A stretch of 64,000 nucleotides of DNA from NCBI GenBank assembly GCA_016748015.1, contig JAAOMT010000009.1:204459-268458 (forward strand), read 5' to 3'. Position 1 is the stretch's first letter; each line of letters opens with the position of its first letter. Source of the DNA: Geosiphon pyriformis uo1. Its lineage: Eukaryota; Fungi; Glomeromycota. The position numbers were made by a program, and so were the translations under genes. The notes under the pieces are model-generated. The model did not search any database and had not been told where the DNA came from. It was given only the letters and a program-made list of their open reading frames with translations. Below, piece after piece: positions 36,913 to 63,600 of the stretch.

Positions 36913-39900
36913 GCAGTTTGGTCTGGAAAGTTGCTATGTGTAATTTTAGGGGCATGAACAATCCCGCTAAACAGAAGGATATTATTAGATGGCATAAGGA
37001 AATGAACAATTTGGTCTCTATCATTACTGAAACAAAATTAAGAAGTAAGGTTCATCCGTGGATTGCAGATAAGTTTGATGGTTTTTGAGTGTTCACTTCT
37101 GGTTTGGACTCTGGTCACTTAGGTGCAGGTGTTGCTGTTGTCATGGATGTTTCTTTGGCTCGTCATGTATACAAGGTTTCTAAGGTGCCTGGTCAGCTCC
37201 TGTTCATTAAATTACTTTTCAAGGGTAAACTTTCTGTGTTAATTCTGGGGCTTTATGCTGGTGCCTTTTTGGTGGTTCAGTTCTCTCAGGCCGGTAAAAT
37301 CAACTCTCTTATTGCGAAGGCTGTTAATGAATCTTCTTTTACTGTTCTTGGTGGTGATTTCAATAAAGATGGTTCTCGTAAGTGTGCAAGTTTTAGGAAA
37401 TGCCTTGATTTGGGTCTGGTAAATTCTTTGGTCGGAAGCCCAGCTGTAAAAATATCCACTTGGGCGAACTCTAGGGGTGTTAGAAAAACAATTGACTATG
37501 TTTTGGTTTCTTCGAATTTGGTTAATGTGATAGTACACCATGGTGTTTCAGATGTTGGTGCATATTTTGAAATGGATCATCAAGCTGTTTTTGTGTCTTT
37601 GGGCTTGGGTGGTTTGCTGGATGTGCAGTTGAACTCTCTTCACAAACAGGCGAATAGAGATTGTTGGAAGTTTGATTTTAAGGGTGCTGATGATGTGAAA
37701 TAGAACAAGTTCAAGGGTGCTATAGCAGCTAATACTGCCATGTTCTCTGATGATTTTATTGCCTCTCAGTGATTCTCAGATTTGGATGTGATATGAGATG
37801 TTGTTCGCAAGATAATGGTTTTTTCAGCTAATAAGGTGTTCAAAAAGAAATGATTTAAGGACTATGATGGTGTCTTCACTAAAGAATCATTCAAATTTCA
37901 TAAGTTAGAACTTTTGATATTGAAGCTAGTTAAAGCTTCTTGGTTGATTTGTCATGATGAATTTATTTTACTGTTAGATGTCTGGGGTTCTCTTGATGAT
38001 AATAAAGCCTTTGTGGTCAGATCTCTCTTTCTCTCCAGCTCTTCTCTTGATACTGTTCGGTCAGCTCTTTCCAAGGTCAGAAAAACTTATCACTCACTCA
38101 AAATGGTGAAGTCAAAGCACATAGAAGAATCTCAAATCAAGTTAGTAATCAATAAGAGAATGGAAAGTTTCAAGCTGAACAAGAGTCACACTATTCGGAG
38201 TGTCTTGGAGTGCCCTTTCATAAGGTTGTTTTGGACCACTTAGTTGTGGATAATGAGTTGATTTTGGAACCTGGTCCTGTGAGACTAAGCATAGATGAAA
38301 TCATGGAAGAGTGGACTAAAAAGCGTAGGGTGGTTCCCGATATCTCTGATGTGTGGCACCATCAGTATCGGCCATTGGATTACATTTTTGATGAGGCTTT
38401 TTCTGGTATAATACAGCCAATTGAGTTTTTGGAATTGTATGGCATGGTTTCTGATCTGCCTATTGGCAAGGCTGCTGGTCTTTTAGGTATTTCAAATGAG
38501 CTGTGGATGCATAGTGATAGGTCTGTTTTGGATATGCTCTTGGTGCTTCTGAATTCTTGTCTGTCTTGTGAGTCTGTGCCTGGTCCTTGGAGAGAAGCTT
38601 GGGTTTCGATAATCCCTAAGCCATACAAATGGGAAGATATCCTCACAAATACCCAACCTATAATCTTGATCAAGATGGCTCACAAGATCCTCTCTAAGAT
38701 TCTCTCTGACAGAATATCGCTGGCGTACAGTGCTCATGACATTCTTCATAAGGACAATTTTTCAGTTCTGAAGGGTACAACTACCCAAACTCCTATTTTT
38801 GCTATTGGTTCAGTTGTTAAAGATGCTTTGGAGAAAAATCGGGAGCTCTGGCTGGTGTTGCAGGACATGCGAAAGACATACGACTCTGTTGGATGGGAGC
38901 ATCTTGAGAAGTGTTTGGTCAGGATCAAAATGTGTGGCAAGTTTATTTGTTTTTTTGGTAGTATTCATAAAAATCGTATCAATTGGGTTATGACAGATTT
39001 TGGTTTAACTGATGGTTACAGTATACATGATGGGTTGAACCAAGGAGAAGTTTTTTCTCCTCTTCTTTGGCGCATATTTTATGATCCTCTTTTGTGTGAA
39101 GTCAAGTGTCAGGAGAGTGTGTGTGGGTATAGACTCAATTCTCATTTTGTCTTTAAGAGTGGTCATGCTGAATCTCAGGCTGGGTTTTCTACTTTTTTTG
39201 CTGCTGGGGCCTTTGTTGATAACACAATTTGGGTTGGCAGCAGTTAGGCTGCTACTCAACATATTCTCAATGTTGCTAGTGAATTTTTTCGAATTAATAA
39301 CATTTCAATCAATAATAACAAGACTGTGGCCATTCTTATTAATAGCAGGATCAGCAATCCATCTCTTTTTATCAGTGGTTTACCCATTTCTATAGCCAAA
39401 AAAGGTGAATCTTATCGGTATCTTGGTATCTTTCTCTTGACCAATGGTCTTTCTAAGCCTAGTTTGGCTAAGGCGCATTCAAACATTTGTTTTTTTAGTA
39501 ATTTGGTTCTGAAGAAAGCAGTTTCAGATAAGCAGTTCTTGTACTTGGTGTTAGCAGTTCTCTATCTTATAGTTAACTATAGGATGCAGTTCAGCTTTGT
39601 TTCTGTTAGTGTGTATGACAAGTGGGATGTTCTGATTTGCAAGAGTTTGAAACTTAAATCTGGTCTTCCTCTTGATTTTCCTAGTGACACAATTCACCAT
39701 TCTTCTTTTTATGGGTTGAAGTCCTTTTTACAATGTCAGTCTGAAAGCAAGATTGCTGCACTTATTAGTTTTGTGAACTTCTGCAGGGTTCTGGGTCAAT
39801 TGTTTGGTCACAGGTCTCACGACTTGCAAGTTCTGTGTTGGCACTCCATTCATCTATTGAGTTCACTGGCTCATATTCGTGTTAGTGTTTCCAATAATTT

Positions 39901-41587
39901 CTTGTCAAGTATCGTGCGCATTCTTCTTGGATGCAGATTGTCTTTAGGTAGTTCTTTGGCCAGCTTTTTTTGGTTTTGTGATGGAGTACCTATATCAGCT
40001 GTCCTGAACGAATTCTTGTTTTTTAAGTACTTGTCCTCTCTCCGGTGTTATGGTATTGCCTTTGTGGATCAGCTTCGGGATCATCATGAGGATATTTTTG
40101 ATTAGTACACCTTTAAGTGGTGGAAAAAACTGGATCCTCGTGGCCCAGTTCCTGAATGGTTTGGGCGCTCTGTTGCATTTCTCAGTAGTGCACCTCCCTC
40201 TCCTTTGGTTTTGAGTGGTGTTGGCCCTGTGAACATTCATGATTCTGATGATTTTGTGTCTGTATGTGATCGTCTTTCTTGGGTTGGCACTGATAGTTTG
40301 TCTGTATATATGGATGGGTCAGTAAAAAATTTGGGCTCGACTGGTTGTAGGGCCGGGGCTGCTGCCTTTTTTGAGGACATTAACTTGGGTTTAAGTGTCT
40401 GTATTCGGGGTTTGATGTCATCTACTTTGGCAGAGTTGCAGGCTGTAGTGTTGGCTCTGGAATGCATACCTGTGGATTGTTCTGTTCACCTGTTTTCAGA
40501 TAGCCAGACAGCCTTGGATGCTTGCAAGTTGGAGGTTAACTTGGTGTATCTTAACTTTCACAATCGGTGTTGGGTTGAGTGCTGGCATATTAAGAATATT
40601 ATACATAGAAAAAATTTGAGGGTCAGCTGGCACAAGGTTAAGAGCCACTTTGGTGTGTTGGGAAATGATTGCGCCAATAGCATTACTGATGTTGCAGCTC
40701 TCTCTGATTGGTTTCTCCCTCCTCGTGTTGCTGAACAGTTTTTGTTGGCAGATGGTGGTATTGTTTTTGGTAATTCTAGACACTTTGTTCGAGATGTTTT
40801 TTATGCTGTCTGTCAGGTGCACTGAGAGGTCGGTTCTGGTTCTGGGTTTCTAGCTGGTGTTTTGCGCTCAAATATCAATTGGCCTACCTCTTCCAGAGTT
40901 TGGCACTCTGATTTGCATATGACAACTGGTTTCACCAGCAAGCACACTGCTGATATTCGTACTTACCTTATGAAGGCTTTGCACCGTCAGCTTCCTGTGG
41001 CTGTTCGAAAGCACATTTATGATAAATGTTACTCTAGTGTTTTGTGTCTGTATTATAGTGAGGTGGAGGTATCTGATCATGTGTTTTCTTGTGTAATTGA
41101 TGATACGGCTCATTGTCAGGTTTTGGAATCCTGTATGTCTTCTTAGAAGGTGCTTTCTGGTCTCTTTCTCCCTGCTTCAGGCGTTTTACAGCTGCTGTCA
41201 ACTTGTGCTTCGGATTTCTTAGTATTTTCGACTCTTTGCAAGGGTTTTGTTTTCAAAGGATGGCTTCAGGAGGCTGTTTCTATCTTCCATGTTCCCAAAG
41301 TTGCTGGCATTAAAATTGCTGATTTTGTACACTCTATTTGTGCTGCTTTCAGGAATGACATTTGGTTGGTTCGTGCTAAGTATCGTGCATACATGGAAAA
41401 AAATGGCCTGATCTCAGTGAATGGCTCAGTTTCTGTCTCAGTTTCTGGTTTGGCTTCAAGATTCTCAAATGGTATGGTTAAGCTGCTTGGTGTTGCTGAA
41501 GCTTTTGGTGTCTGTTTTGGCTTTCACAAATCTTGCTTTTTTTTTTCAGGTATTGGTGACCTGGTTTCAGTTAATATAATTGTGTAG
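36909..41587 (+). pseudogene. LINE ORF2 (APE-RT-RNase H-zinc finger)
   Basis: CNFRGMN, ITETK, GGDFN, IDYVLVS, MDH (APE); QDMRKTYDSV, GLNQGEVFSP, AFVDNT (RT, DD>DN); YMDGS, AELQA, FSDSQ, KVKSH..GND (RNase H); CLYY..DHVFSC. Confidence 0.92.
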
Positions 41588-44700: not shown

Positions 44701-46000
44701 AATAATATTAAAAAACATATAAAATTTAAAATACATATAACATATTATTATTAATTAGTAAATTTCAACTTAATACCAAAAATTTACTAAAAACATTCAA
44801 ACTATTTTAATATTATTTACAATAGTTTTTAAAAAAATATTATAAAAAATAAAATAATAAAAATAATATTAAACTTAAATTCTATAAAAAACTTTATAAT
44901 TTTAAATATAATAAAAATAAATAAATTAATAAGCTTAATTAGAATAATAGCAATTAAAAAAACTTTAAATACAAAATTTATACAAAAAAATTTAAATAAT
45001 ACTTATAATTTAATAAAATTATATAAAAATTAAAATATGGTTTTAATATAAATTAATTTTATTTTAATAATTTTACTAAACATTAAAATAAAAACTATTT
45101 ACTAAACAAATTTTTAAAAATTTGTAATAGTTTTTTAATATTAATAAAATCAAAAAAAATGCTTTAATTTTTATTTTAGTAATTTAATTTTTAAGATTAA
45201 ATTACTTAATTAATTAGTTAATTAAAGTTATATATGAAAATATAATTTGTTTTGTTTTTAAAACTGATATAAATTAATTAAAATTTAATAAATATATTAT
45301 TATTATTATTATTTTAATTAAAAAAAAGTTATTTTTTACAATTAAATTAAAATTAAACACTATTTTAATATAATTATAATAAAATTAATAAAACTACCAA
45401 AAAAATTAAGCTTTAAATTAAACGTATTATTTTAAAAAATATAAAAAAGAAAACTTTTTTTTAACATTTTAAAAAAGTTAATTGCTCTAAATTTTAGAAA
45501 AAAAAATTAGTTTTTTGGTTTTTTATTAAAAATTCTAAAACTTTTTATCATAATAACAATTATATTAAATCTAGTTTTAATTAATTACTTGAAAAAAATT
45601 TTGGATAAAAAAAACTTTTACTTAAAGCTAAAAATAATATTTTTATTATTTAGCAAAAACACTTTAAAAAAATGCCGTTTAACTGTTTTAACTTTCAAAA
45701 AAACTTCTCAAGTATTAGAATTATAAAAACAATAAAAACAAAAGTTGTTTTTTTTTGCTTTGATTTAATCATAATAATATAAGAAAAAAAGTAATAATTA
45801 GATTAAATTAACATTTATAATGTAATTTAACTGCAAACTATTATTATATAATGTATATATTGTATATTAAATGTAAATTACATAAGAAATTACATGTATT
45901 TAGCCATTAATAAAAATGCTTAATGTTTTTTAAATTATATAGTTTAATAACAACAAACATTAAAATAATAAAAAATAATAAAATTTATTTTTTATTTTTG
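41730..46000. other. Extremely AT-rich decayed DNA (probable end-state TE relics)
   Basis: Almost no G/C and no ORFs; similar tracts at ~55.0-56.3, 57.6-58.4 and 60.7-64.0 kb. Confidence 0.6.
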
Positions 46001-46563
46001 TATATTTAATTGTATTGATTGAGCTACACTCGTGAATGCAATTAAAAAAAATTGCATAATAAATTACTAATTATTAATTATTGATTTCAGTATAATTTTT
46101 TGATTTTTATTGATGTTTATTATGTGACTGTTAATTTAATTTGGGTTATTTTTTTGTTTTTTGGTATTTGATGATCCAACAATATTTTTTAATAATATAT
46201 CTAATTGTATAACAGATATTGAATACAGTTTATTAAAACCATTAGTATTCTGTTATTTAACCAACATTAACATTCGGTATTATTATTACGATTCACAGAA
46301 CCATTTACATTACCAACGACTTTCCAATAACTTGATTTGTGTATTATTTCCGCTATAAATAATCTTTGTTTCACCTTTTTCCTTCTTGAGTAATTGATAT
46401 ACCGGGGCTCTGGAGAAACTAGGACTCTTTAATGATTAGTTTATTAGCCGATCAAACCCATTTTAATTGGATAAAACAATTGACCATTCACTATCTTGTA
46501 AATCTCATCAAAAAGTTTTTATTCTCTTCGTGTAAGCCAAAGAGAGAGAAATATTATCCCAAT

Positions 46564-47407
46564 ATGTCAAATTCACTCCATACAAATGGCCCCGTTTCCA
46601 CAAGTACTTCGCCGTCTATAGTTGAAGAAAGGGTGGTATTAAACGTGGGTGGTGTAAAGGTATTTTAAAAAGTTTATGAGAAAGGAGCTTTGCGATCTTT
46701 CTATTGAAATTTATTATCATAAAATATTACATATAAAATTTCAAACATAGTATGAAACTTATCGCGCGACCTTGACTGCCTACCCTCACACTCGTCTTGG
46801 AAGATTATTCAAGAATAAGAAAAAGACACCATCTAATCGTGATGAACATTTTTTTGATCGAAATGGTCATGCCTTTCACTATATTCTCGAATATTATCGT
46901 ACAGGACGTATTACATTTCCACGTGATGATGTTAACTCTGGTGGTAGAGGGGTTGCCTTAGATCGAGAAATTTTCAATGAGCTCGAATATTTTGAAATTT
47001 TGCCCGCTAACATTCCTCACCAGAACAAAGCATTGGCGATACGAATCGATCAACTGGTCAACTTCCTTAGACAAACTTATTTTGAAGCAGTTTCGAGGAT
47101 GCAATTGGAAACAGATATTCGATTTCATGTCGATGGCACTTACTTTGCACCAATAGATGTGAATTTTTGTATTGGGGCTTCTGGCTATGTCATCTTGGAG
47201 AGATTTGGAAAAGATATCGAGTCACATTTGAAGTCTACGATTCCGTTGTTGAAAGCAAACTTTACACACTATCCAAAGGGTAACACTTATCCTGAAAATA
47301 GGATAGTTTCAATGCCACATTATCAAATTCAATTCTTTGTCGAGACTGATAATTATGATTTTGATGCCGTCCGCAAAATCTCCTCTTTAAAATCAAGAGA
47401 TCCTTGA
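46564..47407 (+). CDS. BTB/POZ (KCTD/T1-type) domain protein, ~250 aa; exons 46564..46659 and 46751..47407
   Basis: A 91-nt GT..AG phase-0 intron joins ERVVLNVGGVK to YETYRATLTAYPHTRLG; FFDRNGHAFHYILEYYRTG and ELEYFEI are T1-BTB motifs. Confidence 0.9.
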
Positions 47408-47603
47408 GATTATCAAGGATGCATTAACAATAGTATTAATACTTCTAAAATTTTTCGTTGCAGATAGATTGTGAATCATTAATTGTAGAATCTTTATGCA
47501 AAATCTAAAACATAAATGGCCAAGATCTTAAAATTTACAAATCTGAGTAGAGATGATAATTATGAATCAAACAGACATTTATTTTTTACAATTCAGAGTA
47601 GCC

Positions 47604-47872
47604 ATGATACTTCGCCAACTCATGGTGGTTTTTGGTACATTTGCTCTCACTACTGCTCGACTAATTCCAGCACCTCAACCTAGAGTTGTTAGCAACAATG
47701 TTGTAACTATGTCGTAGAAATGGTATTCTTTATGCACAACTTTGGTTGTCATAAAGGGAATGTTAATGGCAACCAAAACTATGGTACTGGTTACAACAAC
47801 GGGAATATAAATAGTGATAATGAGAATGGAGCTTCCAAAGGCAACGTGAACTATGGAAATTTCAATAAGTGA
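47604..47872 (+). pseudogene. Decayed paralog of the secreted Asn/Gly-repeat protein
   Basis: Signal-peptide-like MILRQLMVVFGTFALTTARLIPAP, then after frameshifts HNFGCHKGNVNGNQNYGTGYNNGNIN...NGASKGNVNYGNFNK*, matching the NGxxNGNxN[YWF]G motif. Confidence 0.6.
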
Positions 47873-48293
47873 TAATGAAAAATCAAAAAACATGGATACT
47901 GAAAACCGCTATTACCCTGTCGAAGTATCACTTCTTTTAATTTCATGGCAATAAAACTTCGGTCCAGCAGAAGTCATTTAATATTAATATCATCCTGAAA
48001 ATTGGTAATATAATTCGCCTATTGGCTCGATTGAAAATTAAATTGCCAAATTTCAAACTTTGACCACATTTGAAATATTCAGGTCAGTAACAATAAAAGT
48101 GATTTTTTTCAAAGAGCTGTGGACATTAATGATTTGCAAGTAGAAAAGGTGCTCAGTAAATATGTTCAAAACCGAAACTTCTAACAAGTATAATGAGGAA
48201 TTGAAAAAGTAAAATATCTTGTTATCATAAAATAAAATAGACAATTCGAAGGCCAAGAGTTTAATACCCTTATGGAGGTATTTTCTTGAGTCT

Positions 48294-49910
48294 TCATTCT
48301 AATCCCACTTCAATTCCTACACAATAATGCTTGGGAGTTTCGGTGATATTGAAATAATTGATTTTTCTCCTTTGCTTTCTGGCAAAGTTTTGGACTAAAG
48401 TTTGGTGAATATCATTGCGACCATCACAAGCCCATGAGAGATAAGAAATAGAACTTGGAGCATTATCAAGAAATCCGCGCAGGTATTTTGCCAATAAGAT
48501 CCATCGATCCGCATTTAAAACCTTAAAACCAAATGGAAGGCATGTTGCTATTTGTGGAAAGTATTTATATAATTTAAATAACCGAGAATCATCAAGTAAT
48601 GGTCTTGGGATAGTCAGCGATTTCAACCGGGAAGTTTTTACCAAGCTTAAAAGGTCCTGAATTTGTTGGTCGGTACATATAAATGTCCCAAAATTTACAA
48701 GATTCGGACAATGAGATGCGATTGTTTTGAGAATAGTCGGGCAATATCTCAAATCTATGAAAAGGTTGAGGTCGGTCAAAATTACATTTGTATTTATCAG
48801 AATTGCTTCCAATTCCAAGGATGCTGCGTTTCGTGGATCATAATTCCAATTTTTTTCAATCCCATTAAATTCCAGATAGCGAAGGTTGGGATATTGTGCA
48901 ATAGCCAATGATTTCAAGCTAACTGAGGTTACTGAGAAATTTGAAAAACTCAATCTTTCCAAATTCTGACATTTTCCCAAACTTTTTAAATCGAAATTAT
49001 CTGGCACCATTCCTCCAAAAATTTCTATTTTTCGCAAAGAGCTTTTTATTTTACCAAGGCTTAGCACCTCCAGTTCGCGTGATAAATCGATTTGATCACC
49101 AACTGTAAGCTCCAAATTTTTTAAATTTCCTTGAACTTTTATCAAACGAGAAAAATCAAACTTTTTCTGATTCGAAAGACCGAACGCCACGATTAAATCC
49201 TCAAGACAATGGCATGAATCTGCTACAGCTTTAAAGAATTCGGCATCATTAAATTGATCATTGCAAGTCAATTTTCTTAGAGAGGAAAGCCAAATTTTCA
49301 TTGATGGGAAAGAGGCAATAGCAGATATGTATTTTTTTGCGCAGATTTCAAACCAGATTGATTTGTTCTTTAATGAAGAGGGTAAATCTGTGTTTAAATA
49401 TTCGAGCGTTCGATGTTCGAGGTCAATTTTGCTAAGGTTGATTAGAACTTTGCAGATCTCGTTTGTAATTTGAAAGCAGCGTTCCTCATGAGTATCCCCC
49501 GTATCGATTTCTGTACCATCGATATCGAACTCACATTGACCACGATAGAAAATATTATTCAATGATGACCATTTTAATACCAATCTGTACAAATTATAGT
49601 AATTCAATTCACGAAGAAATGCTGGATATTCAAAGGCAGGCTTTGGTTGTGATGGTATGTTGCCAAGCTTGAGTTTTAATTTATAATCTTCAATATTTAT
49701 AAAAGTTAGATAAACTGGGATTATCTTGAAGAGCTTTGATTCTGCGATCATGTCGCAATTAAAAGGTTTCCTCCAAAGCGTTGGCATGCCACTTTTGCAC
49801 CATTGTCTATTTACTAAAATTGCTGAATGTAAAGTTCGATAATCATCCGGGTTGATTGCCAAGAAAATTCTTACAAGGCATTCCATTGGTAAAAAGCTGG
49901 ATGTCTCCAT
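48294..49910 (-). CDS. F-box domain / RNI-like leucine-rich repeat protein, 538 aa
   Basis: N-terminal LPMECLVRIF...LHSAILVNRQWC..G.P.LWRKPF and PAFEYPAFLRELN; LRR-like units (LRKLTC, LEDLIV, LKNLEL, CQNLERLSF, CPNLVNF); intact single ORF. Confidence 0.88.
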   Translation of the reverse strand: METSSFLPMECLVRIFLAINPDDYRTLHSAILVNRQWCKSGMPTLWRKPFNCDMIAESKLFKIIPVYLTFINIEDYKLKLKLGNIPSQPKPAFEYPAFLRELNYYNLYRLVLKWSSLNNIFYRGQCEFDIDGTEIDTGDTHEERCFQITNEICKVLINLSKIDLEHRTLEYLNTDLPSSLKNKSIWFEICAKKYISAIASFPSMKIWLSSLRKLTCNDQFNDAEFFKAVADSCHCLEDLIVAFGLSNQKKFDFSRLIKVQGNLKNLELTVGDQIDLSRELEVLSLGKIKSSLRKIEIFGGMVPDNFDLKSLGKCQNLERLSFSNFSVTSVSLKSLAIAQYPNLRYLEFNGIEKNWNYDPRNAASLELEAILINTNVILTDLNLFIDLRYCPTILKTIASHCPNLVNFGTFICTDQQIQDLLSLVKTSRLKSLTIPRPLLDDSRLFKLYKYFPQIATCLPFGFKVLNADRWILLAKYLRGFLDNAPSSISYLSWACDGRNDIHQTLVQNFARKQRRKINYFNITETPKHYCVGIEVGLE

Positions 49911-50099
49911 TTTGCGAGGCTTTTATTCGATGTATTTCCAAAGATTCGTATCGTAAGTGGGCGCAGCTGTTGTTGAAAAATTCGAAGGAAAGCAAAATCG
50001 GATCAAGTAGTTGTAAAATTTAATGACTGATTGGTCAATTAATGTGATCTGCAACTTTAAATTAAATTGACAAACTGTAAAAGCGCTAATTAAGTGTGA

Positions 50100-50200
50100 T
50101 CAACCACTATCTACGATTACATAACAGAAATGATATAGTAGAAGTGGCTCACGCGTTGTCTACGTGTGACCAGCCATCCGAACCGGTCAAGTCTACACTA
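50100..50200 (-). mobile_element. ~100-bp LINE 3'-UTR fragment upstream of the F-box gene
   Basis: caaccactatctacgattacataacagaaatgat...tctacgtgtgaccagcca...acacta aligns with the reverse complement of LINE 41585..41690 (caaacactacctagaaatatacatcaaagaaatgat...tctacacgtgaccagcca...acacta). Confidence 0.65.
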
Positions 50201-50970
50201 ACCAGTCAGACTCTGCAGATCCGAGAAATTCATACCGGAGGCGATATGCGCCATTTTCTTTAAACCACTAAAGCTCTATAATATAGCCAAATTAAAAAAA
50301 TAAAACCAGTTAATAATTGTAAAAATATGTGATTTTTTAAATAAATTATATATATATATTAAAATTGCTACAATATGTAAAGATTTTTATAATTTTATAA
50401 TTTATTAAGATATCTATTTGTTCATCTTGAGATTTTTATTAAAATCTAAATAAACTTGAAATTTGTATGTTATTAATCTAATTAAATAACAAACTTTAAT
50501 GGCAGAAACAAATTACAAAGTCAAAAAACTATTTACAGCAAATAAAACAATTTCGTTTATCATTTTTTAGGCAATTGAAAATTTAAACAAAAACTGATGT
50601 AAAAGTAATGATACATAAATTTGCCCAATTCGCTTTATTTGAAAAGCAGAAGTGTATTTTAGATAATATTTTATAAACTAATTTTATTTATCATGATATT
50701 ATAAAATAAAGTATTATACACCAAGAAAATTTTTCCTCTTAAAGCTATTCTTCCAACACAATCAAGACACTTATAAAAATATTTAACCAGTGCGTAAACT
50801 ACTTAAATTTTGTATATAAAAGGATGTGATCGACTCATTAAGTAGATAATCAGGAATATTAATTACATGTAAATTCGGGTTTATTTTTTGAATATCCAAT
50901 CTTCGCACCCAAAAAAATTCAAATTGAAAAGTTACCTTGAACTAAAATTTAAAGAACTCACCGCTCTTTT

Positions 50971-51140
50971 TTCAATGGTAATACGGAGCATGGCAGTTAA
51001 AATTGAATTGACCAACGAAATGCGTGATGGGGCAATTATAATGACAACGGCAACCGAAATTTGAAACGTAAAGGTGCAGACAATGGCAGAAACCACAATT
51101 TTGGCAGTTTCCAATGATGATAACCATGGTAATCATAATC
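50971..51140 (+). pseudogene. Second decayed Asn/Gly-repeat paralog fragment
   Basis: Translation FNGNTEHGS*...WGNYNDNGNRNLKRKGADNGRNHNFGSF/NDDNHGNHN, including a KR site; TATATAAA upstream at ~50813. Confidence 0.45.
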
Positions 51141-51549
51141 CTTTGATTGAGCACGTGGCCCAAAGGCATAATCACAAAGAATCAAATAACACAGAAAGTA
51201 ACTTTTGAAACTAACAACTGTTTATCCTGTATCAAAAAAGTGAAGAGCTAAAAAATAATTTATTGCAAATCAAACTGTCGACTTTATTTTGTATTGTTAA
51301 TGAAAGCAGAAATCCACTTGTAAATAATTAAGCCGCTATGGCTAAACTTACCAATAAGACATGTTAAATGCATGTTTAACATTTTGGAAACAGAAACGTG
51401 TAGATAGGTATTTTTCATGTAGAAATTATTTATTTATATTCTTTACAAGCTAGACATTTATTTCAAAGATTTAGATTTTTACAAGTATATGTGGAATTCT
51501 TGAATCTATGTATTTTTTAGGTTGCACTTCACAAATTTTATTTGAGTAT

Positions 51550-53061
51550 CTAGTAGTTGAAATTACCGTTGTGGTAGCCGTTGTCATTTCCCCAGTTGTA
51601 ATTTCCATTAGAAAGACCATTATAACTTCCATAGTTGTTGTTTCCGTTTGCTACTCCATTGCCACTTCCCCAGTTGGAATTTCCATTGAATTGGCCATTG
51701 CCATTTCCCCAGTTGCCATTACCATTGCCGACACCATTATAAACAGCTTGACGTTTGTAGTTGTTATTACCGTTGTAGTAGCCGTTGCCATTTCCCCAGT
51801 TGTAATTTCCATTAGAAACACCATTATAACTTCCATAGTTGCCATTTCCATTAGAAACACCATTATAACTACCCCAGTTGGAATTTCCATTGAATTGGCC
51901 ATTGCCATTTCCCCAGTTGCCATTACCATTGCCTACACCGTTACCAATAGCTTGACGTTTGTAGTTGTTATTACCGTTCCAGTAGCCGTTGCCATTTCCC
52001 CAGTTGTAATTTCCATTAGAAAGACCATTCAAACTTCCATAGTTGTTGTTTCCATTAGAATCACCATTAGAACTTCCCCAGTTGACATTTCCATTGAATT
52101 GGCCATTGCCATTTCCCCAGTTGCCATTACCATTGCCGACACCATTATAATAAGCTTGACGTTTGTAGTTGTTATTACCGTTCCAGTAGCCGTTGCCATT
52201 TCCCCAGTTGTAATTTCCATTAGAAAGACCATTCAAACTTCCATAGTTGTTGTTTCCATTAGAATCACCATTAGAACTTCCCCAGTTGACATTTCCATTG
52301 AATTGGCCATTGCCATTTCCCCAGTTGCCATTACCATTGCCGACACCATTATAATAAGCTTGACGTTTGTAGTTGTTATTACCGTTCCAGTAGCCGTTGC
52401 CATTTCCCCAGTTGTAATTTCCATTAGAAAGACCATTCAAACTTCCATAGTTGTTGTTTCCATTAGAATCACCATTAGAACTTCCCCAGTTGACATTTCC
52501 ATTGAATTGGCCATTGCCATTTCCCCAGTTGCCATTACCATTGCCGACACCATTATAATAAGCTTGACGTTTGTAGTTGTTATTACCGTTCCAGTAGCCG
52601 TTGCCATTTCCCCAGTTGTAATTTCCATTAGAAAGACCATTCAAACTTCCATAGTTGTTGTTTCCATTAGAATTACCATTGCCACTTCCCCAGTTGACAT
52701 TTCCATTGAATTGGCCATTGCCATCTCCCCAGTTGCCATTACCATTGCCGACACCATTATAAACAGCTTGACGTTTGTAGTTGTTATTACCGTTCCAGTA
52801 GCCGTTGCCATTTCCCCAGTTGTAATTTCCATTAGAAAGACCATTCAAACTTCCATAGTTGTTGTTTCCATTAGAATCACCATTAGAACTTCCCCAGTTG
52901 ACATTTCCATTGAATTGGCCATTGCCATTTCCCCAGTTGCCATTACCATTGCCGACACCATTATAATAAGCTTGACGTTTCTCCGAGGGAGCGGCGGAAG
53001 TAGCAAGAGAGAGAAGGGCAACACATGCCATCACAGATAGGGAAACCGATTTAATTGCCAT
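51550..53061 (-). CDS. Secreted Kex2-processed repeat protein (KEP-type precursor): signal peptide plus seven 66-aa Asn/Gly/aromatic-rich peptides separated by KR
   Basis: Intact 503-aa ORF: MAIKSVSLSVMACVALLSLATSA/APSEKR, then 7 x 68-aa (204-bp) units starting Q-A, each preceded by KR (29 + 7x68 - 2 = 503). Confidence 0.9.
   Translation of the reverse strand: MAIKSVSLSVMACVALLSLATSAAPSEKRQAYYNGVGNGNGNWGNGNGQFNGNVNWGSSNGDSNGNNNYGSLNGLSNGNYNWGNGNGYWNGNNNYKRQAVYNGVGNGNGNWGDGNGQFNGNVNWGSGNGNSNGNNNYGSLNGLSNGNYNWGNGNGYWNGNNNYKRQAYYNGVGNGNGNWGNGNGQFNGNVNWGSSNGDSNGNNNYGSLNGLSNGNYNWGNGNGYWNGNNNYKRQAYYNGVGNGNGNWGNGNGQFNGNVNWGSSNGDSNGNNNYGSLNGLSNGNYNWGNGNGYWNGNNNYKRQAYYNGVGNGNGNWGNGNGQFNGNVNWGSSNGDSNGNNNYGSLNGLSNGNYNWGNGNGYWNGNNNYKRQAIGNGVGNGNGNWGNGNGQFNGNSNWGSYNGVSNGNGNYGSYNGVSNGNYNWGNGNGYYNGNNNYKRQAVYNGVGNGNGNWGNGNGQFNGNSNWGSGNGVANGNNNYGSYNGLSNGNYNWGNDNGYHNGNFNY
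51553..52974 (-). repeat. Seven-copy 204-bp coding tandem repeat with a 39-bp (13-codon) sub-period
   Basis: Units 1, 3, 4 and 5 are identical in protein sequence; internal NGxxNGNxN[W/Y]Gxx motif. Confidence 0.95.
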
Positions 53062-53210
53062 TTTATTAAGTATCAGAAGAATGTTAAGGTTTAATTCGTT
53101 AGAGGAATATAGAAACAGAGGAGAGATTACAACCTAATTATTGGACAGATATGTAATTTTATCGAGAAGAACAATTCGATGAAGAAAGATAAAGGTTGAT
53201 TGATAGGGTC

Positions 53211-53218
53211 TTTATATA
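53211..53218 (-). promoter_or_regulatory. Putative TATA box of the repeat-peptide gene
   Basis: TATATAAA on the minus strand ~150 bp upstream of the ATG, followed by a pyrimidine-rich leader. Confidence 0.45.
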
Positions 53219-56200
53219 CTTGCGTTTTGAATTAAAATTAAAATTTTCATTTTTTGAACGAAAGATCGTTTTTGGAATATTAGAATATTAGATACCTGTA
53301 TTCTCCTAAAAAAAACCATGTAATCTTCCTTGATGCACATCTTATTGAAAGTGATCAGGGTTTAACAATAATGATCGATCGGAATTAAAAATTTTATTTT
53401 TCATTGTGGAAATAAAGGTCGGTAAGGGTGCATGCGTGTAGATTTGTAAGACCTCCCCAGATCAGGGGTAAATCAACAGAGATCGACTTCATTCTACAAT
53501 GAATTTTTATCAGAGTAAAAATTGTTACCAGTTACCCCCTAGAAAAATAAAAAGTAAATATGTTCTGTAATCGATTCCTCAGGAGCAAAAGAAAATGCGT
53601 CTTTGTGTATGTTCTTGGTTACTTCTGCCACCATTTTTCGATTTAACTGATGTTAAAAATTCTGATCAGAATATTAGTATAGATAGTGGAATGACCTCAC
53701 TTTGTTATAGCAAAAAAATATATATATATATATATACAATGTAATTTTTAATTAGAATTGAAAAATATATTATAAATTAATAAAAACACCTTACAAAAAT
53801 AATATTAAATGATTAAAAAATAAATCATAGTTTTAATAAATATTTTTTTTCATTTTTAAAAACACAATTGCAATTTTAATTGAAAATGTCGTTTTGTATT
53901 TAATGACATTTGTATTATCAAATATAATAATATAAAATTACAGTTTTGTTTAAATTTTAAATTTTAAATTATTATGTACAGGAAATGTTGTTACAAATAA
54001 TTTAAAATTTTTAACTTTTCACTTATTTCTTATCAATCTTTGGTTATCCAAACCTAATTGTTTTTTTTTTCAGAATGTGAAGGAGTTAGAGATTAGGTTA
54101 CTCATAATATTGATTCTTGCACAATTTCATTGTACAAATTATTTCTTAAAAATTAGAGATTCATGCCTATGCATAAAAATTGAAATTCTCGAAAGTGCGA
54201 TTGCACCAAAATTTTAATTATTCGGAATCTCCATTTTAAGAACAATCCAATATCGATATCTTTGTTAGCTACATGAATATGGAAATATAAATATTTGAGC
54301 CTGAATTTGATCTAAAGTCTAAAAACGAAAGAATTGTTAATTTTTTTACAAAGCCGGGTAGACCTAAATCAAGAATAAATGCATAAAATTGAATTCGAAA
54401 TGTGTCCATAATTAGACAAATGAGCCCAAGCCTGATCGGGAACCCTTGTCATTTATTCCCAACGTGTTCCTCAATAATAGATTCTATTTGAAATCAAAAC
54501 CTGATTTTTTCTTCCCGAAACTATAATCATAAATTACTTTTTGCCTATCTTAGTAAAAGGAATTTTACCCCAACAAGTAACTTGACCTCGTTTAAACAAT
54601 CTGAAAAGGTAAGTCAAAGTTTATGATCAAAAAGGGGTTGGGCTAATATCCGTGAAAATAAATAAGGTTATCCAACAAACCCCGCCTCAAAACCGACAGA
54701 TAATCAAAAAGTTCGATAAACAAAGAGTTATACAACAAAGATTTCTTTTGCTGTCTTATTTTTTTTGACATAAATTTGATTGCTAGGGTTATAAAGTTCG
54801 TGGCGTGATAATTCTGGTGTAAAAGAATAGCATCGAAAGCTTTGGATCATTATAATAGCTTATCAAGGGTACCCATTTTAAAGATCTAATTACAAATTTT
54901 ATCTGCAGAAGATAAGCTGAAAAATTACGCAATTCTTTGTTCTGATAACAACTTACAATTACAAAAAAGCTCGAAATTTTAAAAATTCATTTTTACAAAT
55001 AAGTTAATCGTAAGTTTGACATGTAAAAAACAATTGACCAAAGAAAAATTGTGCATGTTACTTAACATTAATTAATAAAAAACACGATTCACTATTAATT
55101 ATGTATGAATTTACTTTTTTTTAATAATAATATTTTTATCAATAAAAATGAATTAACAAACTTTTATTTTATTTAGCTTTTATCATTGATTAAAAAAATA
55201 AACAATTATAAGATGCTTTGTCAAAATATTAAAATAAATTTAATCAAAAAAAATTTTATAATTCATAAAATGCTTTTAATTAATTACGTAATATAACAAA
55301 TAATTGTGCAAGCAAATATTAATAAATTACTATATATTAAATTCAAAAATATAAAAAACTGCTCCAAAATTTTTTTACTAATATAAAAATTTGTATAATT
55401 GGTTTTTTTATAACAAACTTTTTTTTAAAAATATTATTTTGTAATAATTTTAACTTTACAAAAACAAATAAAACTATTTTTAAATAAATATTTATTATTA
55501 ATTAATATTTATTATTATTTTAACATTATTTAAAATTTTACAAATTACATTAATTATTCAATTTATTATTAATATAACATTTCAAATTTTACCTTAATTT
55601 ATAAATATAATTAAATATTAAAATTAAATTATTTATTATTTTAAAATAATACAATAAAAATTTTTTAAGTAATTTAAACTAAATTTTAATTAATTTTAAA
55701 CAGTTTAAATAAAAGTTTATTAAAATTTTTATAAAACCAAAAGTATTAAAACTTAGAATATTATTATATAAAAGTTGTATAAAAAATTTTTTTTTTTTCA
55801 AAAAAAAAATTTTTTGTTATTTAAAATAAATACGATTTATTAAGCCAATTTTTTTAATTTAATTATAATTAATAATAATTTTTTTTATTTTAGATTATTG
55901 GGCTTAAAATAAATAAATATTATAATTATTTTATAAAATTAATTTTTAAAACTCAAAAATAATAGTATAAAATTTGGAATTAAATTAATTAATTAATACC
56001 AATAGTATATAATTATTTAATTTAAAAAACAATGTATTGTTAATTAGTTTAAGTCTGCATTTTAATTGTCATGTATAATAAAAACTGTTTTGGTTTTAAA
56101 AATTTTAAAAAGTCAATTTCTTTCAAATAATAACAATTAAACTAATGTGTTTACAGTTGATAATTAAACAATTGTAAAATTATTAATTTTCAACAATAAA

Positions 56201-56682
56201 AAATAAAAGAAAATTCTTTTAATTAATTCTTGATAAAAAAAAAATTGTTAAAGTATAATAACAAATTTAAGCATGCTAATTTCTAATTAAACCTCAGTTT
56301 AAACCGGGAATTTTTATTTTTTAAAATCTTCGGATTTTGAGAACCTAAAACCTCTTTCTTTTAATTACGAGAACGTCTGTGTCAAATCACTCTATAGTAC
56401 TTGCTGCTTAATACTATTGACTAAACCAGCTTTTAAAAACCCAACACACTTTAAGTGTTTTTCAGTTTGTGAACGTTGTGAAACAGAATATAAACAGGTA
56501 AAGTCGTTTGTCACAGCAGATACCCAGGACGTTGTATTCGAGAGGTTCTTTATTAATTTGAGTGTCGTTAAAACATTAAGAGTTTCTGGGTTTGATAACG
56601 TCAGAGACAAAAGAAAGTTTTAGAGAAAGTAAATGCTGCTCGGCGTGTGGAATTGCGCCGTTCGTTCTTAGCATAGAATCCA

Positions 56683-57452
56683 ATGTCGAACAAACCAGTT
56701 GTGATGTTCCAAAAACCCAAAAATGTGAAGCACACTCTACCTGTTGTCGATCATATAAAATTCTCACCTGTACCTAAAGTTTCTGGTCTGGGTTTCCGGA
56801 CCAGCGATAACACCAATGTCACGGTCACAAAGTCACCGTTGTTGTGTGAATCGTGATTCAATGATTGGAAATTTCGTAGTGGATACGTTTAATTTGCATC
56901 CTAGGATGGTACCTTAGGTCCGGGATCTAGCTGACATGTAGGATAGATATGCAGTTGTAAGGGCTGCCGTTCTTTATGCGCCTGCCATCAACAAGTAATG
57001 ATAGCGTTTTCGTATGTTTTGACTACGAGGATCATGGAGGTCTTCCAACAGATATCATCGAAGCTCAGTCTATGAATCGTTTTATGTTGTGCCCGATTTG
57101 GTCTCACTCTCAGTGGTGCTCAGTACCTTCTGGACTGTTCAAAGGGAAAGTGTAAACGCAACAGTAATGTCGACTTCAATCTGTTCGTAGACGAGCAATG
57201 TATTGACCTCAGGCTGATCAAAGATATCATTCCAAACACCACTTTTACGGGAAAGACATCATTAAAGTTATCATTTACCCGTCACTGCAACATTAGAACT
57301 TTGTAATTTACCGATACCCACGACCCTCCAGGAGAGTAACTCACGAAGCGAAATCAACCAAATCGAAAAGAGTTGATCTTGATGAGTTTAGTCAATATAA
57401 AGATAAAGTTGACGATTTAATACGTCGTATGGGTGAAGTCAGTGATCAGTGA
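56683..57452 (+). pseudogene. Endogenous viral element: degraded jelly-roll capsid protein (S-domain, sobemo/tombus/barna-like)
   Basis: Manual translation across frameshifts: MSNKPVVMFQKPKNVK...FRTSDNTNVTVTKSPLLCE / FVVDTFNLHPRMVP*VRDLADM*DRYAVVRAAVLYAPAI / TSNDSVFVCFDYEDHGGLPTDIIEAQSMNRFMLCPIWSHSQ / SNVDFNLFV / VTATLELCNLPIPTTLQ. Motif order matches the S-domain as recalled. GC/CpG-rich island within AT-rich DNA. Confidence 0.65.
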
Positions 57453-58395
57453 CCTTAGAAAGAATTCCTGGTATGAAAATTACGTCTAAACGGATATTCT
57501 GAATTAAAATATTTTTGTAATGCATTTGAAATCTAATTTTTCACTGGTAAAACTGGTTTAAGTAATTAATCATGTGTTATATATAATGTGATTTGCATTT
57601 AATATATAATAATTACATTATACGAAATTAAGTAATATTTGTAAAACGATAAAAGAAAAACCTAATTAGTTTTTAATTATACAATTTTTTATTGTTTAAA
57701 AAGTTTGATTAATAATTTTTTAAAGAAATATCAAATTCTTATTATAAAAATAATAACTTAATTTAATTAATGAATTTACAAAAAAATATTAAACCAATTT
57801 AAAATATTTTAAATAATTAATTAATAAAAATTTAAAATAATTATCATAAAATTAATACATATATTTTTTTATTAGCTTTAAGAAATATAATAACTATTTT
57901 TTATACATGTAGAATTAAGTAATTTTACAAATAAGTACAATTTATGTAGTTTTAGCATAAAGCCAGTTTTTATTTTACTAAAGTAATTTACAAATGCATT
58001 GTTAATAATTGTAGATATTTATTTTTCTGTTATATTTTACAAATCTTATATATAATACAATTTTTTATAATTAATTATAATTGATTTAAAATTTTTAAGC
58101 ATTATTAATATGAGTAATATATATTTTTTTTTAACTGGTTAAAACTTTTAAGCAAATTAATTATATTATAAAATAAAACTTAATATTTATAACAAAATTT
58201 ATATTAATAACCAAAAAAAAAGTAATAAAATTTAATTTTTTAACCAAAAATCTCACAAAATTTGACAAATTTTACAACTTTAAATTTAATAATTCTAATT
58301 TTAATTTATATATTTTAATAAAAAAACTATCATAAAACTATATAATATTAAAAAATAATAATTTTAATATAAAATTTTTATTATTATTGTTAAAG

Positions 58396-60655
58396 TTTAA
58401 TGAACAAGACCCAACTACTATCTAATACAATATGACTATATAAAGTCTTAAATTAGATGTGACTTATGCATTTTTTATATGTAACCAGCTACTCGAGCCA
58501 GTTCAGACTATACTACATTAATGCACTAAAAGAAAACTTATCCAAAAACAATATCTTTTAAATAACAAGAAACAAAGTTACACTGCAAGAAACCAATCCA
58601 ACCAATCATTTGGCTGTTTTTAAAATATTAACTTTAACATCAATAGATTTATGTTCTCAAAGAGACATCAAGTTAGAAAACACTTTATCATCCAAACCAA
58701 TTGGGTGCTCTGAATTACCAGACATATTAATATTTTTCATACACCACTTTTTTTTTAAAGAAACCACTTCTTTTCCCAACTACCAACAATTTTACTAAAA
58801 GAATCCAAATATATCATAATCTCATTAACCTTAAGACCAAGTTTACTGCTTGAAACCAAATCTTCATTAATAAAATGTTTGAACAATTTGACCAAAGTAC
58901 TAACTGGTTTAACAATAGATTCAACCAAAGCAGAAAGCTTGACCAAATCAGACTTCAAAGAAGCCAACCAAGAAGACATCAAGAGATTATCAACAACTAT
59001 AGAAGGGGAAATAGGAGCTTTTAAGAAAAAAAACTCAGAAGAATCTAAAAAAACAAAAGCTTTTGCATAAGAAACACTATTTATAAAATGTGTTTTAAAC
59101 ATTTTGGGAGCCTTAGGAGGGGGAAGCAGAAAAACTTTGCAGTCAACAGTCAAATAGTCCACTTTTTGATACTTAAAACAGTGCTAACAACCAGGAATTT
59201 TTTATTAAATATGGCATTTTCTTAAGGTACCAGTTTTGATAACTGCAGAGTACAAATTAACTTGAAAACCAAATATAACCAGAGCAAACCAGGAATAATG
59301 ACCAGAATCAAACAAACAAGGAATGAAACAAGTCTGATCACTAATTTGAGAGATCATATCATTAATCTTAAAGACAGTACAGCCAAAAGGAAGATTAATC
59401 AACTTGGCCTTAAACCAATCACAAAACAAAATTGTCTTATTTTGATTGATAAGAAGAAGAATATAAACACTATTTTTGCCTACCAAAATTAACCAGTAAA
59501 TAAAAGCAGAAGCAGCAACATCCAATTTTTCAAAGTAAACAATCACATATTGCCAAATATTAGCAGATTTCAGCATAACATGAAAAACTTCACCAAAAAC
59601 ATTAAGAGCTGACTTAATATTAGCAGTAGACATACTCAAAGGCACATTACATAGCACAATAGCAGCAGGAGAAGAACTAAACTTAGAAACCACCAAAAAC
59701 TAGGCAACTTTAAGAAAAGCAAGATGAACAGAGCTTGTAAGCTCAACTAGAAATACAGTATTCAGAGAACTTAGAAAAGCAAACTCCATACAGAAGAGTT
59801 TCATATTGTCTTTAGAAACAGATTTTACACCCAAAAAACCATGTATAAACTGAAAAACAGCCTTAATATAAGCCAATTTGATCTTAAATAGCATCAAATA
59901 CTAGAATAAAAACCATTCACTTAGCAAATTTTTGATAATTAGCAATAGTTTCACAAGCACCACCAGCAACAGCACCAGAAACCAGAGGAGGAGATGATTC
60001 AATTTCTATTTGGTTAGTTCAGTTCTCAAAAACAGTAATATCACAGGAAATGATTGTTTTGCTTCTAAAACTAGTAAAAATATACCAAAAGACTCCATAT
60101 TTGGCAATACAGCCAGTAGTTAATCTTGGCCCATCTTAGATGATATGCTGGATAATGCTATAGAAATCTTATCTAAAATCTCATTGGGAACTACAAAAGA
60201 GTTTGGTGTAATAATAGCAGAGGCAAACAATTGCCTTTACTTTTCTGAACTTTTGGTCTTTTTGACCATTTTTTTGAAGAGAATGTACTAGCAGCACCAG
60301 ATGTTAAAGCTATGAAGGGAAATACTAGCTTGTTAACTGGTCTATTATTAAACACTTTTGGGCTCTTAATAGGAGTGGAGACAATACTAAAACTAATTCA
60401 AGTGTGTTTCTTTGAAAGAACTTTGACTGGTGAAAAACCAACTAAAGATGTAAAAGTTGCTTCAGTAACTATCAAAGGCAGCTTTTCACAATTACTAGGT
60501 AAAGAAAAGATTTCTAAAATATTCTGCTTAGTTGCTTCTACTACAGAAAGAGCTCCTCTGGTTGAAATTTTATTAGATATCTTAGGAAAGATATCAAATA
60601 CAGCTTTTTTATTCTTTGCTCTAATCATGGTTATTAAATTAAAGAGACAAAGAGC
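58396..60655 (-). mobile_element. Non-autonomous ORF1-only non-LTR element (~2.3 kb) carrying a LINE-like 3' tail
   Basis: ORF fragments 60398..60628, 59700..59897, 59205..59696 (AIVLCNVPLSMSTANIKSALNVFGEV...WQYVIVYFEK, homologous to LINE ORF1 VVIKEIPIGTSAKAVRTVLSEFGVI...WQKTVVEFEQ) and 58755..59162; 58396-58520 matches the LINE 3' UTR ending CTTGTTCATTAAA; no ORF2. Confidence 0.75.
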
Positions 60656-63600
60656 CTATATAAAATATTAAATTAACAAAAATTTTTAAATATAATAAAA
60701 AACATAAAAAATAGTATAATTAAAAAAAAATTAATTAATAAACTTTAAATTAATATTAAAGATTTTACAAAATATTAATATTCTTAATTATTATAAAAAA
60801 ATATTATAAAAACAAAAACAAAAACCACAAAAAATTTTATTAGTAATAAAAATTTAATAAATTTAATTTTAGTAATAAAACTTAAAATGAAAATCTTATA
60901 TAAAAAAATTTATTATTATTTTTAATATTTAATTTTATATTAATAAATTCATATAAAAACTAAAATAAAAACTATTTATTCAAAAAATTTTTAATAATTA
61001 TTAATTATTTTTATGTATTTTTAAAATTAATAGTATTTTTAAAGAATAAATAAAAAAATATATTTTAATTTTTATTTAATTAGCTTTTAATAAATAATCT
61101 AATTATTATTTATTATAATACAATTATAAAATTTTTTAAAATAAACATAATTTATGTTTTTTTTATATAACTAATTATTTAAACCAATTAAAATTATATT
61201 AAATACTTATAAAACCAGAAACTTTAAAAAAATTTACAAAAATTAACAAAAAACAATTATAAATTAAAATTTATATTAAAACAAACTAAGTAATTTTAAA
61301 TAAAATCAAAATTATAAATTAAATTTTACAAGTTAAATATTACCAAATTATGTATATTAACTAAAATAAAATAATTAAATATTTATTTGTAATATATAAT
61401 CAAACTTTAAATAATTTACAACACAAAAACCAGTCTTATTTGTATTTTTAATATTAATAGTAATTCAATTTTTTAAAATAAAGTTTTTAATAATAATATT
61501 ATATAACAACTAAAAAATTAATAATATATATAATTTATTTACTTAATATAATAATTAATAATAATTATTGTTTTTATAATAAAATTAAAAAACACAAAAA
61601 AATATAATCAGAATTTTTTATTAAATTATAATAAATACAATTTACACTAAAATATTTAAAAAAAATTGGAAATCTCTTTTTTTTCTTAAATTTTATAACT
61701 ATAACCAAAATAAAAAATAAAAAAGTTTTGCACATTATTTTTTATAATAATTAATAAAGTTTTAATAAAAAAAAATATTTTTGTTATTAAAGCAGTTAAA
61801 CAAAATATTTTAATAATATTTTTTAAAATATTAATAATAAAAAACTGTTTTTGGTAATATTTAAAACAATCTTTTTTATTTTTGGTTAATAGCTTTTTTT
61901 CAGTTAAAATTTTTTTTAAAAAGCACATTAAAATTAGTTTTAGTATTATTTTTATCTTCTTTAAAAATTTTAAAGTCTTTAATAATAAGTTAGTTAACAA
62001 ATTAATTTTTTTTATTCTTATTATTATCATTATTATTATTACTTTATAAATAGTCAAAAAAACTTAAAACTTTAAAAAACAACAACAATTGCTTATATTT
62101 GCTATTGTTATACTGAATTTTTTTGTGGTTTTAAATAAAATCTTAAATAAATTTTTTTAATAATATCTAATTTTTTTTCTAATATAAACAACAACAACAA
62201 TAATATATATTCTAAAAAAAAATTAAGATTAATTACTAATTGTATTATTAAATATAATATTTTTTAGCAGATTATTACTAATTGTAAAAACAAAATAAAA
62301 TATGTTTTTAAATATGTTTTTACTTAATTAATCTATTAAGTTATTTAATCTTAAAATTAAAGATTAAATAAAAACAAAATCAATATTTTTTCTTTGTTTT
62401 TTAATATTGTTTTTAATAATATTTGAAAAACAATTTTTAATCATTAAAAATTCTTTGGATAAATAATTTTTGTTTTAATATTTAGTATTATTTTTAAGAT
62501 TAAATTGGCTTTGGTTAATTTTTTTCATTTGCTGTTTGGTTTTGTTGAATTTAAGTCTGTTTTAAAGAACAATATAAAATTTTTTATAAAAATTTTGTTT
62601 TTGATGTTTTTTAATTACTATTATCAAAATTTTTATTAATAATTTTTTTTTAATTATACTTAAAATTCTAAAATTTTTTGTAATAATCTCTGTCTTTTTT
62701 TTATTTGCTATTATATTTTATAATGTTTTTTTAAATATATTTTTTAATAATATTAAAAATACTTTAAATGTTTTTGATATTATTTCTTTAATTAAATTAA
62801 AATCTGCTGGTTTGTAATAATATATAATTGTTTATTTTAAAAACTTTTTTTTTGCTATTGTTTTTGCTTATTAGTTTATTTTAATTAAAAAAACAATATT
62901 AAAATCTTTTTTTAATTAATCAAAAAGAAATTATTATTTTAAAAGATATTTTTAAGACCAAATTAGTTAATTTTTTTTTGGTTATATTGTTTTTAAAATT
63001 AAAAATTTAATTTTTTAAATTAGTAGTTATACTTGTTTTATTTTTTATTTTTCTGATTTTTATTATTATTAATGTTTTACTATTATTACTTTTAAGTTTT
63101 TAGAAATTTTAAATTTTATTATTCTATAAATTAATATTTTATATAAAAATTGCAATTAATAAAAAACTGTCAAATATTATTACTGCTATAAGTATTAAAA
63201 TTTAAGTTATTTAACTGTAAATTATAATATGTTTTTATTTTTTTTTCTTAAATTTGTTTTTAAGTCTATTAATAATTTTATTGTTTTTATTTTATTTTTT
63301 GTTAATACAAAATTTTATTTTAAGGTTGTTGTTTTTTTGGCTCTTTTTTTGGTTGTTTTTTTGGCTGTTTTTGTTGTTAATTCTTTAATTAAATCTAAAT
63401 TAAATTTTTTGAAATTTGAAATTTTTGATTTAATTTATTTGATTAATATTAATTATTATTTTTTTGAATAATTTTTTTGTTTTATATATAGAACTTAATA
63501 ATATGATTAATATTATTTAAAATAAAGTTTTTATTTTTGGTAAGACTAAAACTGAATATGGTTTTAATAATAATTATATAAATAAATATGATAATAATTT

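Follow-up and report, generated by a model that had tools for sequence, protein, structure and literature searches.

Genes and mobile elements of the window

The window, by which we mean the whole 64-kb stretch analysed here, is AT-rich eukaryotic DNA and contains both host genes and decayed mobile elements. Two of the genes are convergent: a BTB_2 gene on the + strand (46,751-47,407), which we take to be KCTD-like, and a single-exon F-box/LRR gene on the - strand (48,294-49,910), recognised by Pfam and by its relatives. The best named relative of the F-box/LRR protein comes from Ambispora leptoticha (43%), a member of the order Archaeosporales, and all of its named relatives (4/4) belong to the Glomeromycota. 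These relatives place the host as a Glomeromycotina fungus, in agreement with the fungal chromosome proposed in a preliminary description of this DNA. The F-box protein is recorded on a 2.36-Mb contig. Note that BTB_2 and F-box/LRR genes are typical expanded families of the Glomeromycota.

The mobile elements lie on both sides of these genes. A block of decayed LTR-type elements, presumably Ty3-like, occupies 1,816-34,900 on the + strand, with a dUTPase (PF00692, E 2.5e-16) ahead of the reverse transcriptase (RT); the dUTPase and RT domains of these elements are found at 1.8 and 18.5 kb, and dUTPase-like frames repeat at 1.8 and 22.5 kb. The same strand next carries, at 35,195-41,587, a LINE-like element that is disrupted chiefly by stops and comprises endonuclease, RT and RNase H. 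An older LINE-like remnant is present on the - strand (58,380-60,700), and its first ORF is related to the element at 35 kb (27% identity, E 2e-18).

The window also contains an ORF of 502 residues (51,550-53,058, - strand) that begins like a signal peptide and has seven units, delimited by KRQA and spaced exactly 68 residues; it is rich in Asn (166), Gly (129), Tyr (42) and Trp (26). We take it to resemble a Kex2-processed repeat precursor, which would release Asn/Gly-rich, perhaps amyloid-like peptides. Neither a Pfam family nor an Atlas match was found for this ORF, and its exact sequence is absent from the protein collection.

A compositional island between AT deserts

Between two AT deserts with a GC content of 0.12, a change-point fit placed an island of ~1.23 kb and an overall GC of 0.40 at 56,271-57,501, the likely extent of an insert. 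The ranges for its edges are 56,262-56,331 on the left and 57,492-57,557 on the right, and it starts ~400 nt ahead of the ATG at 56,683 that opens a capsid-like gene. The island reported in the preliminary description is thus real, but longer than the ~1.1 kb given there. It had also been called GC- and CpG-rich. This is correct with respect to the flanks (GC 0.116 and 0.121) and to the transposons of the window (CpG o/e 0.08, 0.32 and 0.02), but the values are within the range of the host genes nearby (GC 0.35-0.41, CpG o/e 0.54-1.06): the capsid-like part has a GC of 0.416 and a CpG o/e of 0.96, and the 400 nt preceding it have 0.35 and 1.22, respectively. Since GC and CpG of the island are ordinary for local host genes, the composition is no mark of foreignness. 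It does set the island apart from the transposons; the LINE-like remnant located just 0.9 kb away has 1 CpG in 2,321 nt (o/e 0.02). No second copy of the island was detected within the window (best blastn E 0.23), and Rfam gave 0 matches.

The CpG domains of the window are sharp. The o/e is ~0.5-1.2 over 46,000-57,500 and 0.02-0.3 over 1,800-41,600 and 58,400-60,700, and the switch between the gene block and the transposon blocks occurs within 1 kb. These domains are likely the footprint of lasting CG methylation on repeats.

Upstream of the capsid-like ATG, the island contains a stop-free frame of 106 codons (56,303-56,623, + strand), which has no in-frame ATG and ends 59 nt ahead of that ATG. 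Its length exceeds chance, as a frame this long was obtained in 22/3000 dinucleotide shuffles, and its GC is flat by codon position (0.35/0.33/0.33). The frame had no credible match in Pfam, Atlas or PDB, nor in any of 41 protein candidates, and the viral contig scan was equally negative (0/7). In the metagenome contig scan a single match (1/151) was obtained inside a 485-residue ORF, which we take to be a leucyl aminopeptidase, and was judged to be chance. No related match was found in the six frames of the ~400 nt of island upstream of the ATG. The 106-codon frame may be either the tail of an upstream viral gene, since it is placed where such a gene would end, or non-coding.

The capsid-like gene is broken by frame changes and stops

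The preliminary description had proposed a capsid-like gene that starts at ATG 56,683 and gives the expected motifs in order. In support of this, all nine motifs (9/9) were found on the + strand, in the expected order and within 56,818-57,410. The ATG starts a frame of 57 codons, the last frame ends at 57,452, and the whole span comprises ~256 codons. Instead of about four frameshifts, we found five zones of frame change (56,835-56,867; 56,983-56,991; 57,134-57,169; 57,189-57,281; and 57,331-57,372). There are in addition two in-frame stops, at 56,915 and 56,939, and both are in the second piece.

Piece 1 (56,683-56,856) contains the start codon, a Lys/Pro-containing N-arm and a proposed first strand, which was assigned by its motif in the preliminary description and found no support in the searches. 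The arm, previously described as Lys/Pro-rich, has 6 Lys and 5 Pro, together with 1 Arg and 2 acidic residues, among 45 residues, and is therefore only mildly basic. Piece 2 (56,867-56,983), with the two stops, and piece 3 (56,991-57,134) represent the first and second halves of an S-domain-like core. Piece 4 (57,154-57,280, with a motif at 57,169) would encode later strands, and piece 5 (57,281-57,360, with a motif at 57,281) the proposed last strand and a linker; the limits of both are approximate. The first and last strands of the eight-stranded jelly roll were proposed from motifs picked by eye, and had no search match. Finally, piece 6 (57,361-57,452) is a charged C-terminal tail (15/31 residues charged), predicted to be helical, followed by the stop. 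All six are on the + strand.

GC by codon position over the proposed pieces is coding-like (0.48/0.37/0.41). The stop-free tiling is at chance level, being equalled in 643/2000 shuffles of the capsid part and in 243/2000 of the island. Introns were considered as an explanation for the changes of frame and rejected: GT-AG candidates, at chance level and with island-like GC, occur at four zones and would delete matched residues, the fifth zone has no fitting GTR-donor candidate, and the contigs described below showed no joints. The five changes of frame, together with the two stops, rule out that a protein is made.

The core resembles the S domain of sobemovirus coats

We next compared the core with known proteins, using pieces 2 and 3 joined, with X at the breaks, as a query of ~100 residues (about 56,867-57,134). 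Against Pfam, PF00729 was the best of 2 matches, with E 0.033 and 14.5 bits, below the curated cut-off of 23 bits. Residues 6-86 of the core aligned to positions 52-137 of the 207 in the profile, which leaves room for an arm before and ~70 positions after, and so fits the span. Against PDB, three of the four matches were coats of sobemoviruses: SBMV (4sbv, E 0.13), RYMV (1f2n, E 0.62) and SeMV (1smv, E 1.1). The only gap in these alignments is at the frame break; note that the core break was placed with the SBMV alignment in view, and that the three coats are mutually homologous. Piece 3 on its own, unjoined, also found the SBMV coat (4sbv, E 1.7), as 1 of 2 matches among 177,635 PDB sequences. 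The S-domain capsid of the preliminary description has support, although short of formal significance, in PF00729 as the top Pfam match and in sobemoviruses as 3/4 of the PDB matches.

Two spacing motifs, A (56,927, in piece 2) and B (57,018, in piece 3), fit all three solved coats. They are 91 nt apart and in the right order, each occurs once when the window is read in all six frames, and among 3000 shuffles of the island they turned up in 1 and 0, respectively, although the motifs were picked post hoc. Judged by these post hoc motifs from the three solved coats, the core motifs of PF00729 are present in order and spacing. Both in-frame stops fall on motif columns that are common to SBMV and SeMV, and RYMV differs at both.

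How much weight can these matches bear? The per-family chance is ~1.3e-6 (0.033/24,736) for a family that was named before any search, though by resemblance. By itself the E-value is no better than noise: 5/7 natural pieces matched unrelated families at E 0.045-0.24 and 1/10 other reads matched an unrelated family at E 0.009, and none of the seven natural pieces matched PF00729 alone. No cellular family was found over the core in Pfam or PDB, except for a stretch of 22-27 residues of myosin VI.

Outside the core, neither Pfam nor PDB gave a related match for pieces 1, 4, 5 and 6 (arm, late strands and tail), and a search of 1.84 billion proteins with the frame that contains pieces 1 and 4 yielded 0 matches at E 0.001. 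Piece 3 gave 0/2 candidates among longer proteins. Contig scans gave 0/33 (viral) and 0/595 (metagenome) matches. One viral contig (1/62) matched over 21 residues, which was taken as chance, and another obtained with piece 6 (1/35) matched residues outside the proposed frame and was likewise judged to be chance. The searches made with the pieces revealed no relative and no intact homologue. With all this considered, we think it likely that the core is homologous to the S domain. The capsid reading as a whole is probable on the sequence evidence, below formal significance, and the core is the part that the searches back.

The island is joined to host DNA

A short-read contig of 5,126 nt (X1) covers 56,020-57,700 and bridges both junctions of the island with 0 differences and 0 gaps, so the junctions of the insert proposed in the preliminary description have support, from a contig that may have been a source of the assembly itself. 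In addition, contigs from a run (X2) of the same sample match exactly at 56,334-56,851 and 56,913-57,321, 927 nt that include three of the break zones. These X2 contigs are confined to the island, with the adapter on the same side in both, and cover neither the flanks nor 56,852-56,912 nor anything from 57,322 onward. X2, labelled as DNA by a guess, could come from stranded RNA or from DNA of patchy coverage. The contigs exclude long-read error better than they show independence. As judged from these contigs of one sample, the island is physically joined to host DNA.

Nature of the proposed donor

Sobemovirus coats are proteins of 26-34 kDa that consist of R and S domains and are related to the coats of necroviruses; they are encoded by the 3'-most ORF, made from a subgenomic RNA, and carry an arginine-rich motif within their first 30-35 residues (PMC4488728). 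The island has in common with them the collinear core and the gap-free motif spacing, a similar size (238-266 residues for the coats, ~256 codons here) and a Lys/Pro-containing arm ahead of the shell domain (PMC4488728). In contrast to these coats, the sequence in the island is broken and scores under the family cut-off. It also continues past the proposed last strand with a charged tail of ~45 residues; for sobemovirus coats, only the R and S domains are described (PMC4488728). The arginine-rich motif is absent from the arm, of which the first 45 residues include 1 Arg and 6 Lys, and no match to a polymerase, protease or VPg gene was obtained in the ~400 nt of island ahead of the coat-like gene. 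Since the arginine-rich motif is missing and ~45 charged residues follow the last strand, the gene should not be filed as a sobemovirus.

The preliminary description had named sobemo-, barna-, tombus- and crucivirus-like donors. A sobemo-like donor is favoured over a tombus- or crucivirus-like one by the matches and by the absence of space for a P domain, since ~45 residues are left up to the stop and match no family. As would be the case for the island, S-domain capsids occur outside plants in the crucivirus-type BSL RDHV, whose tombus-like capsid has S and P domains in 542 residues, and in the oomycete viruses SmV-A and PhV-A (PMC3372434). However, all of these capsids have a P domain in addition to the S domain (PMC3372434), for which the island has no room.

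Proposed integration, decay and alternative explanations

The explanation that we favour, with confidence a little better than even, is that the broken gene in this fungal chromosome likely goes back to the coat gene of a small T=3-type (+)ssRNA virus from the sobemo/necrovirus capsid lineage, that reverse transcription probably brought it in, and that it is likely to be inert today. The whole 256-codon span would once have been a single coat protein with an arm, an S domain and a short charged tail, and the donor would have been an RNA virus. A LINE or Ty3 reverse transcriptase may have copied the viral 3' end or a subgenomic RNA, bringing in the insert with ~400 nt of upstream sequence, and the insert would then have decayed neutrally, without methylation.

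Integration by a LINE or LTR reverse transcriptase had been suggested in the preliminary description, and the presence of RT-bearing LINE-like and Ty3-like elements in the window makes it plausible. At the island itself, however, no target-site duplication above chance was found (the longest is 8 nt, and at least 8 nt was reached in 292/300 shuffles), and there is no poly(A) tail, so we can only infer the integration route. Old or LTR-mediated inserts may be without both a target-site duplication and a poly(A) tail. The preliminary description had further suggested that the insert could be a source of small RNAs, for which we found no evidence. In Rhizophagus, transposons are CG-methylated and give rise to half of the small-RNA loci, most genes are unmethylated, and methylation is low in short, old transposon copies (PMC8647823). 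Since CpG is not depleted in the island, a long-term methylated small-RNA locus is argued against, and the simplest reading of the kept CpGs is that a short insert was never recognised as a repeat.

Could the resemblance to a capsid have arisen by chance, in a decayed host gene or some other sequence whose motifs are noise across frames? It is true that every E-value is sub-threshold, while a junk read reached E 0.009, that the tiling is not significant, that GC and CpG are host-gene-like and that nothing matched outside the core. But Pfam and PDB agree on a family named in advance, the two spacing motifs are collinear and unique in the window, the stops are on conserved columns and no cellular family covers the core beyond the short myosin VI stretch, and we consider chance unlikely. 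Less probable again is that a gene of the same viral origin was retained and expressed by the host, or remains transcribed and unmethylated today, and was broken only in this lineage. The five frame changes, the two stops and the failure to find an intact homologue for the pieces searched speak against such a history, which would otherwise suit the start and stop codons still present, the contrast in CpG o/e between the island (0.96-1.22) and the LINE-like remnant, the unmethylated state of most Rhizophagus genes next to CG-methylated transposons (PMC8647823) and the domestication of totivirus genes in other fungi (PMC2805616). The CpG argument is itself weakened, because short, old transposon copies are low in methylation (PMC8647823) and a short single insert may be so too.

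Lower still we place a donor of the crucivirus type, a virus with circular ssDNA and a capsid like those of RNA viruses, whose gene would have been inserted directly as DNA with no reverse transcription step. The missing duplication and poly(A) tail fit DNA capture, ssDNA virus genes have been reported from eukaryotic genomes (PMC3198968) and crucivirus-type viruses do have tombus-like capsids. Yet the capsid described has both S and P domains in its 542 residues (PMC3372434), while the island offers ~45 residues past the last strand; the PDB matches are sobemoviruses, with no tombusvirus up to E 10; and of 43 nonanucleotide-like origin matches in the window none is inside the island, nor was Rep matched in the six upstream frames, although both may have been lost after insertion. 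We also regard as improbable that the island goes back to encapsidated (+)ssRNA viruses of an undescribed lineage that infect Glomeromycotina and combine a sobemo-like shell with a Lys-rich arm and a charged C-terminal tail, and that the host has kept the broken copy unmethylated and transcribes it as a non-coding antiviral RNA. Finally, the locus could be an artefact or a contaminant, either a viral sequence joined into the contig or a gene whose frame breaks are long-read errors. The sequence comes from one sample, X1 may have fed the assembly, and all five frame changes are in the same direction (chance about 1 in 16). Against this, a short-read contig crosses both junctions free of differences and gaps, X2, although from the same sample, is identical over three break zones, and the neighbouring gene is recorded on a contig of megabase size; an artefact is very improbable.

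Relation to known viral insertions and significance

The insertion of viral genes into fungal chromosomes is already known. Totivirus-derived genes are integrated in fungal genomes (PMC2805616), endogenous RdRp-like genes occur in Mucoromycota (PMC7482067) and host proteins resembling curvulavirus coats are present in fungi (bioRxiv 10.1101/2023.07.20.549826). The totivirus and RdRp-like inserts share with the island, as we read it, an RNA-virus gene in a chromosome and a presumed copying by host RT. The sources of those inserts are dsRNA or unassigned viruses, and intact, transcribed copies exist among them (PMC2805616, PMC7482067), whereas the island would be a broken single-jelly-roll coat gene in Glomeromycotina. 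In Rhizophagus irregularis, an endogenous region of 1.5 Mb from Nucleocytoviricota (dsDNA) lacks a major capsid gene (PMC10640383). Both that region and the island would be viral fossils in Glomeromycotina chromosomes, but the island is of 1.2 kb and its putative capsid belongs to another fold class.

Among viruses of these fungi, tombus-like ones have been described in Mortierella, Syncephalis and Anaeromyces, and Virgaviridae-like and tymo-like ones in Glomeromycotina; no occurrence of the words 'sobemo' and 'capsid' was found in this source (PMC7482067). For an S-domain coat fossil, and thus for this class of donor, in Glomeromycotina we found no report, although supplements or closed journals may list one.

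The dead gene is real, and its origin is probably viral. Being one broken gene whose matches stay under the threshold, it does not by itself alter any mechanism. It is, at the same time, a decayed insert that was spared the CpG loss undergone by transposons 1 kb away. S-domain capsids are known mainly in plant viruses and in metagenomes of unknown host, and a chromosomal fossil is a record of the host. If confirmed, the island would mean that a virus with an S-domain capsid entered a Glomeromycotina fungus, either as the fungus's own virus or as the cargo of a partner, and the locus provides a concrete probe for a living virus in fungal transcriptomes.
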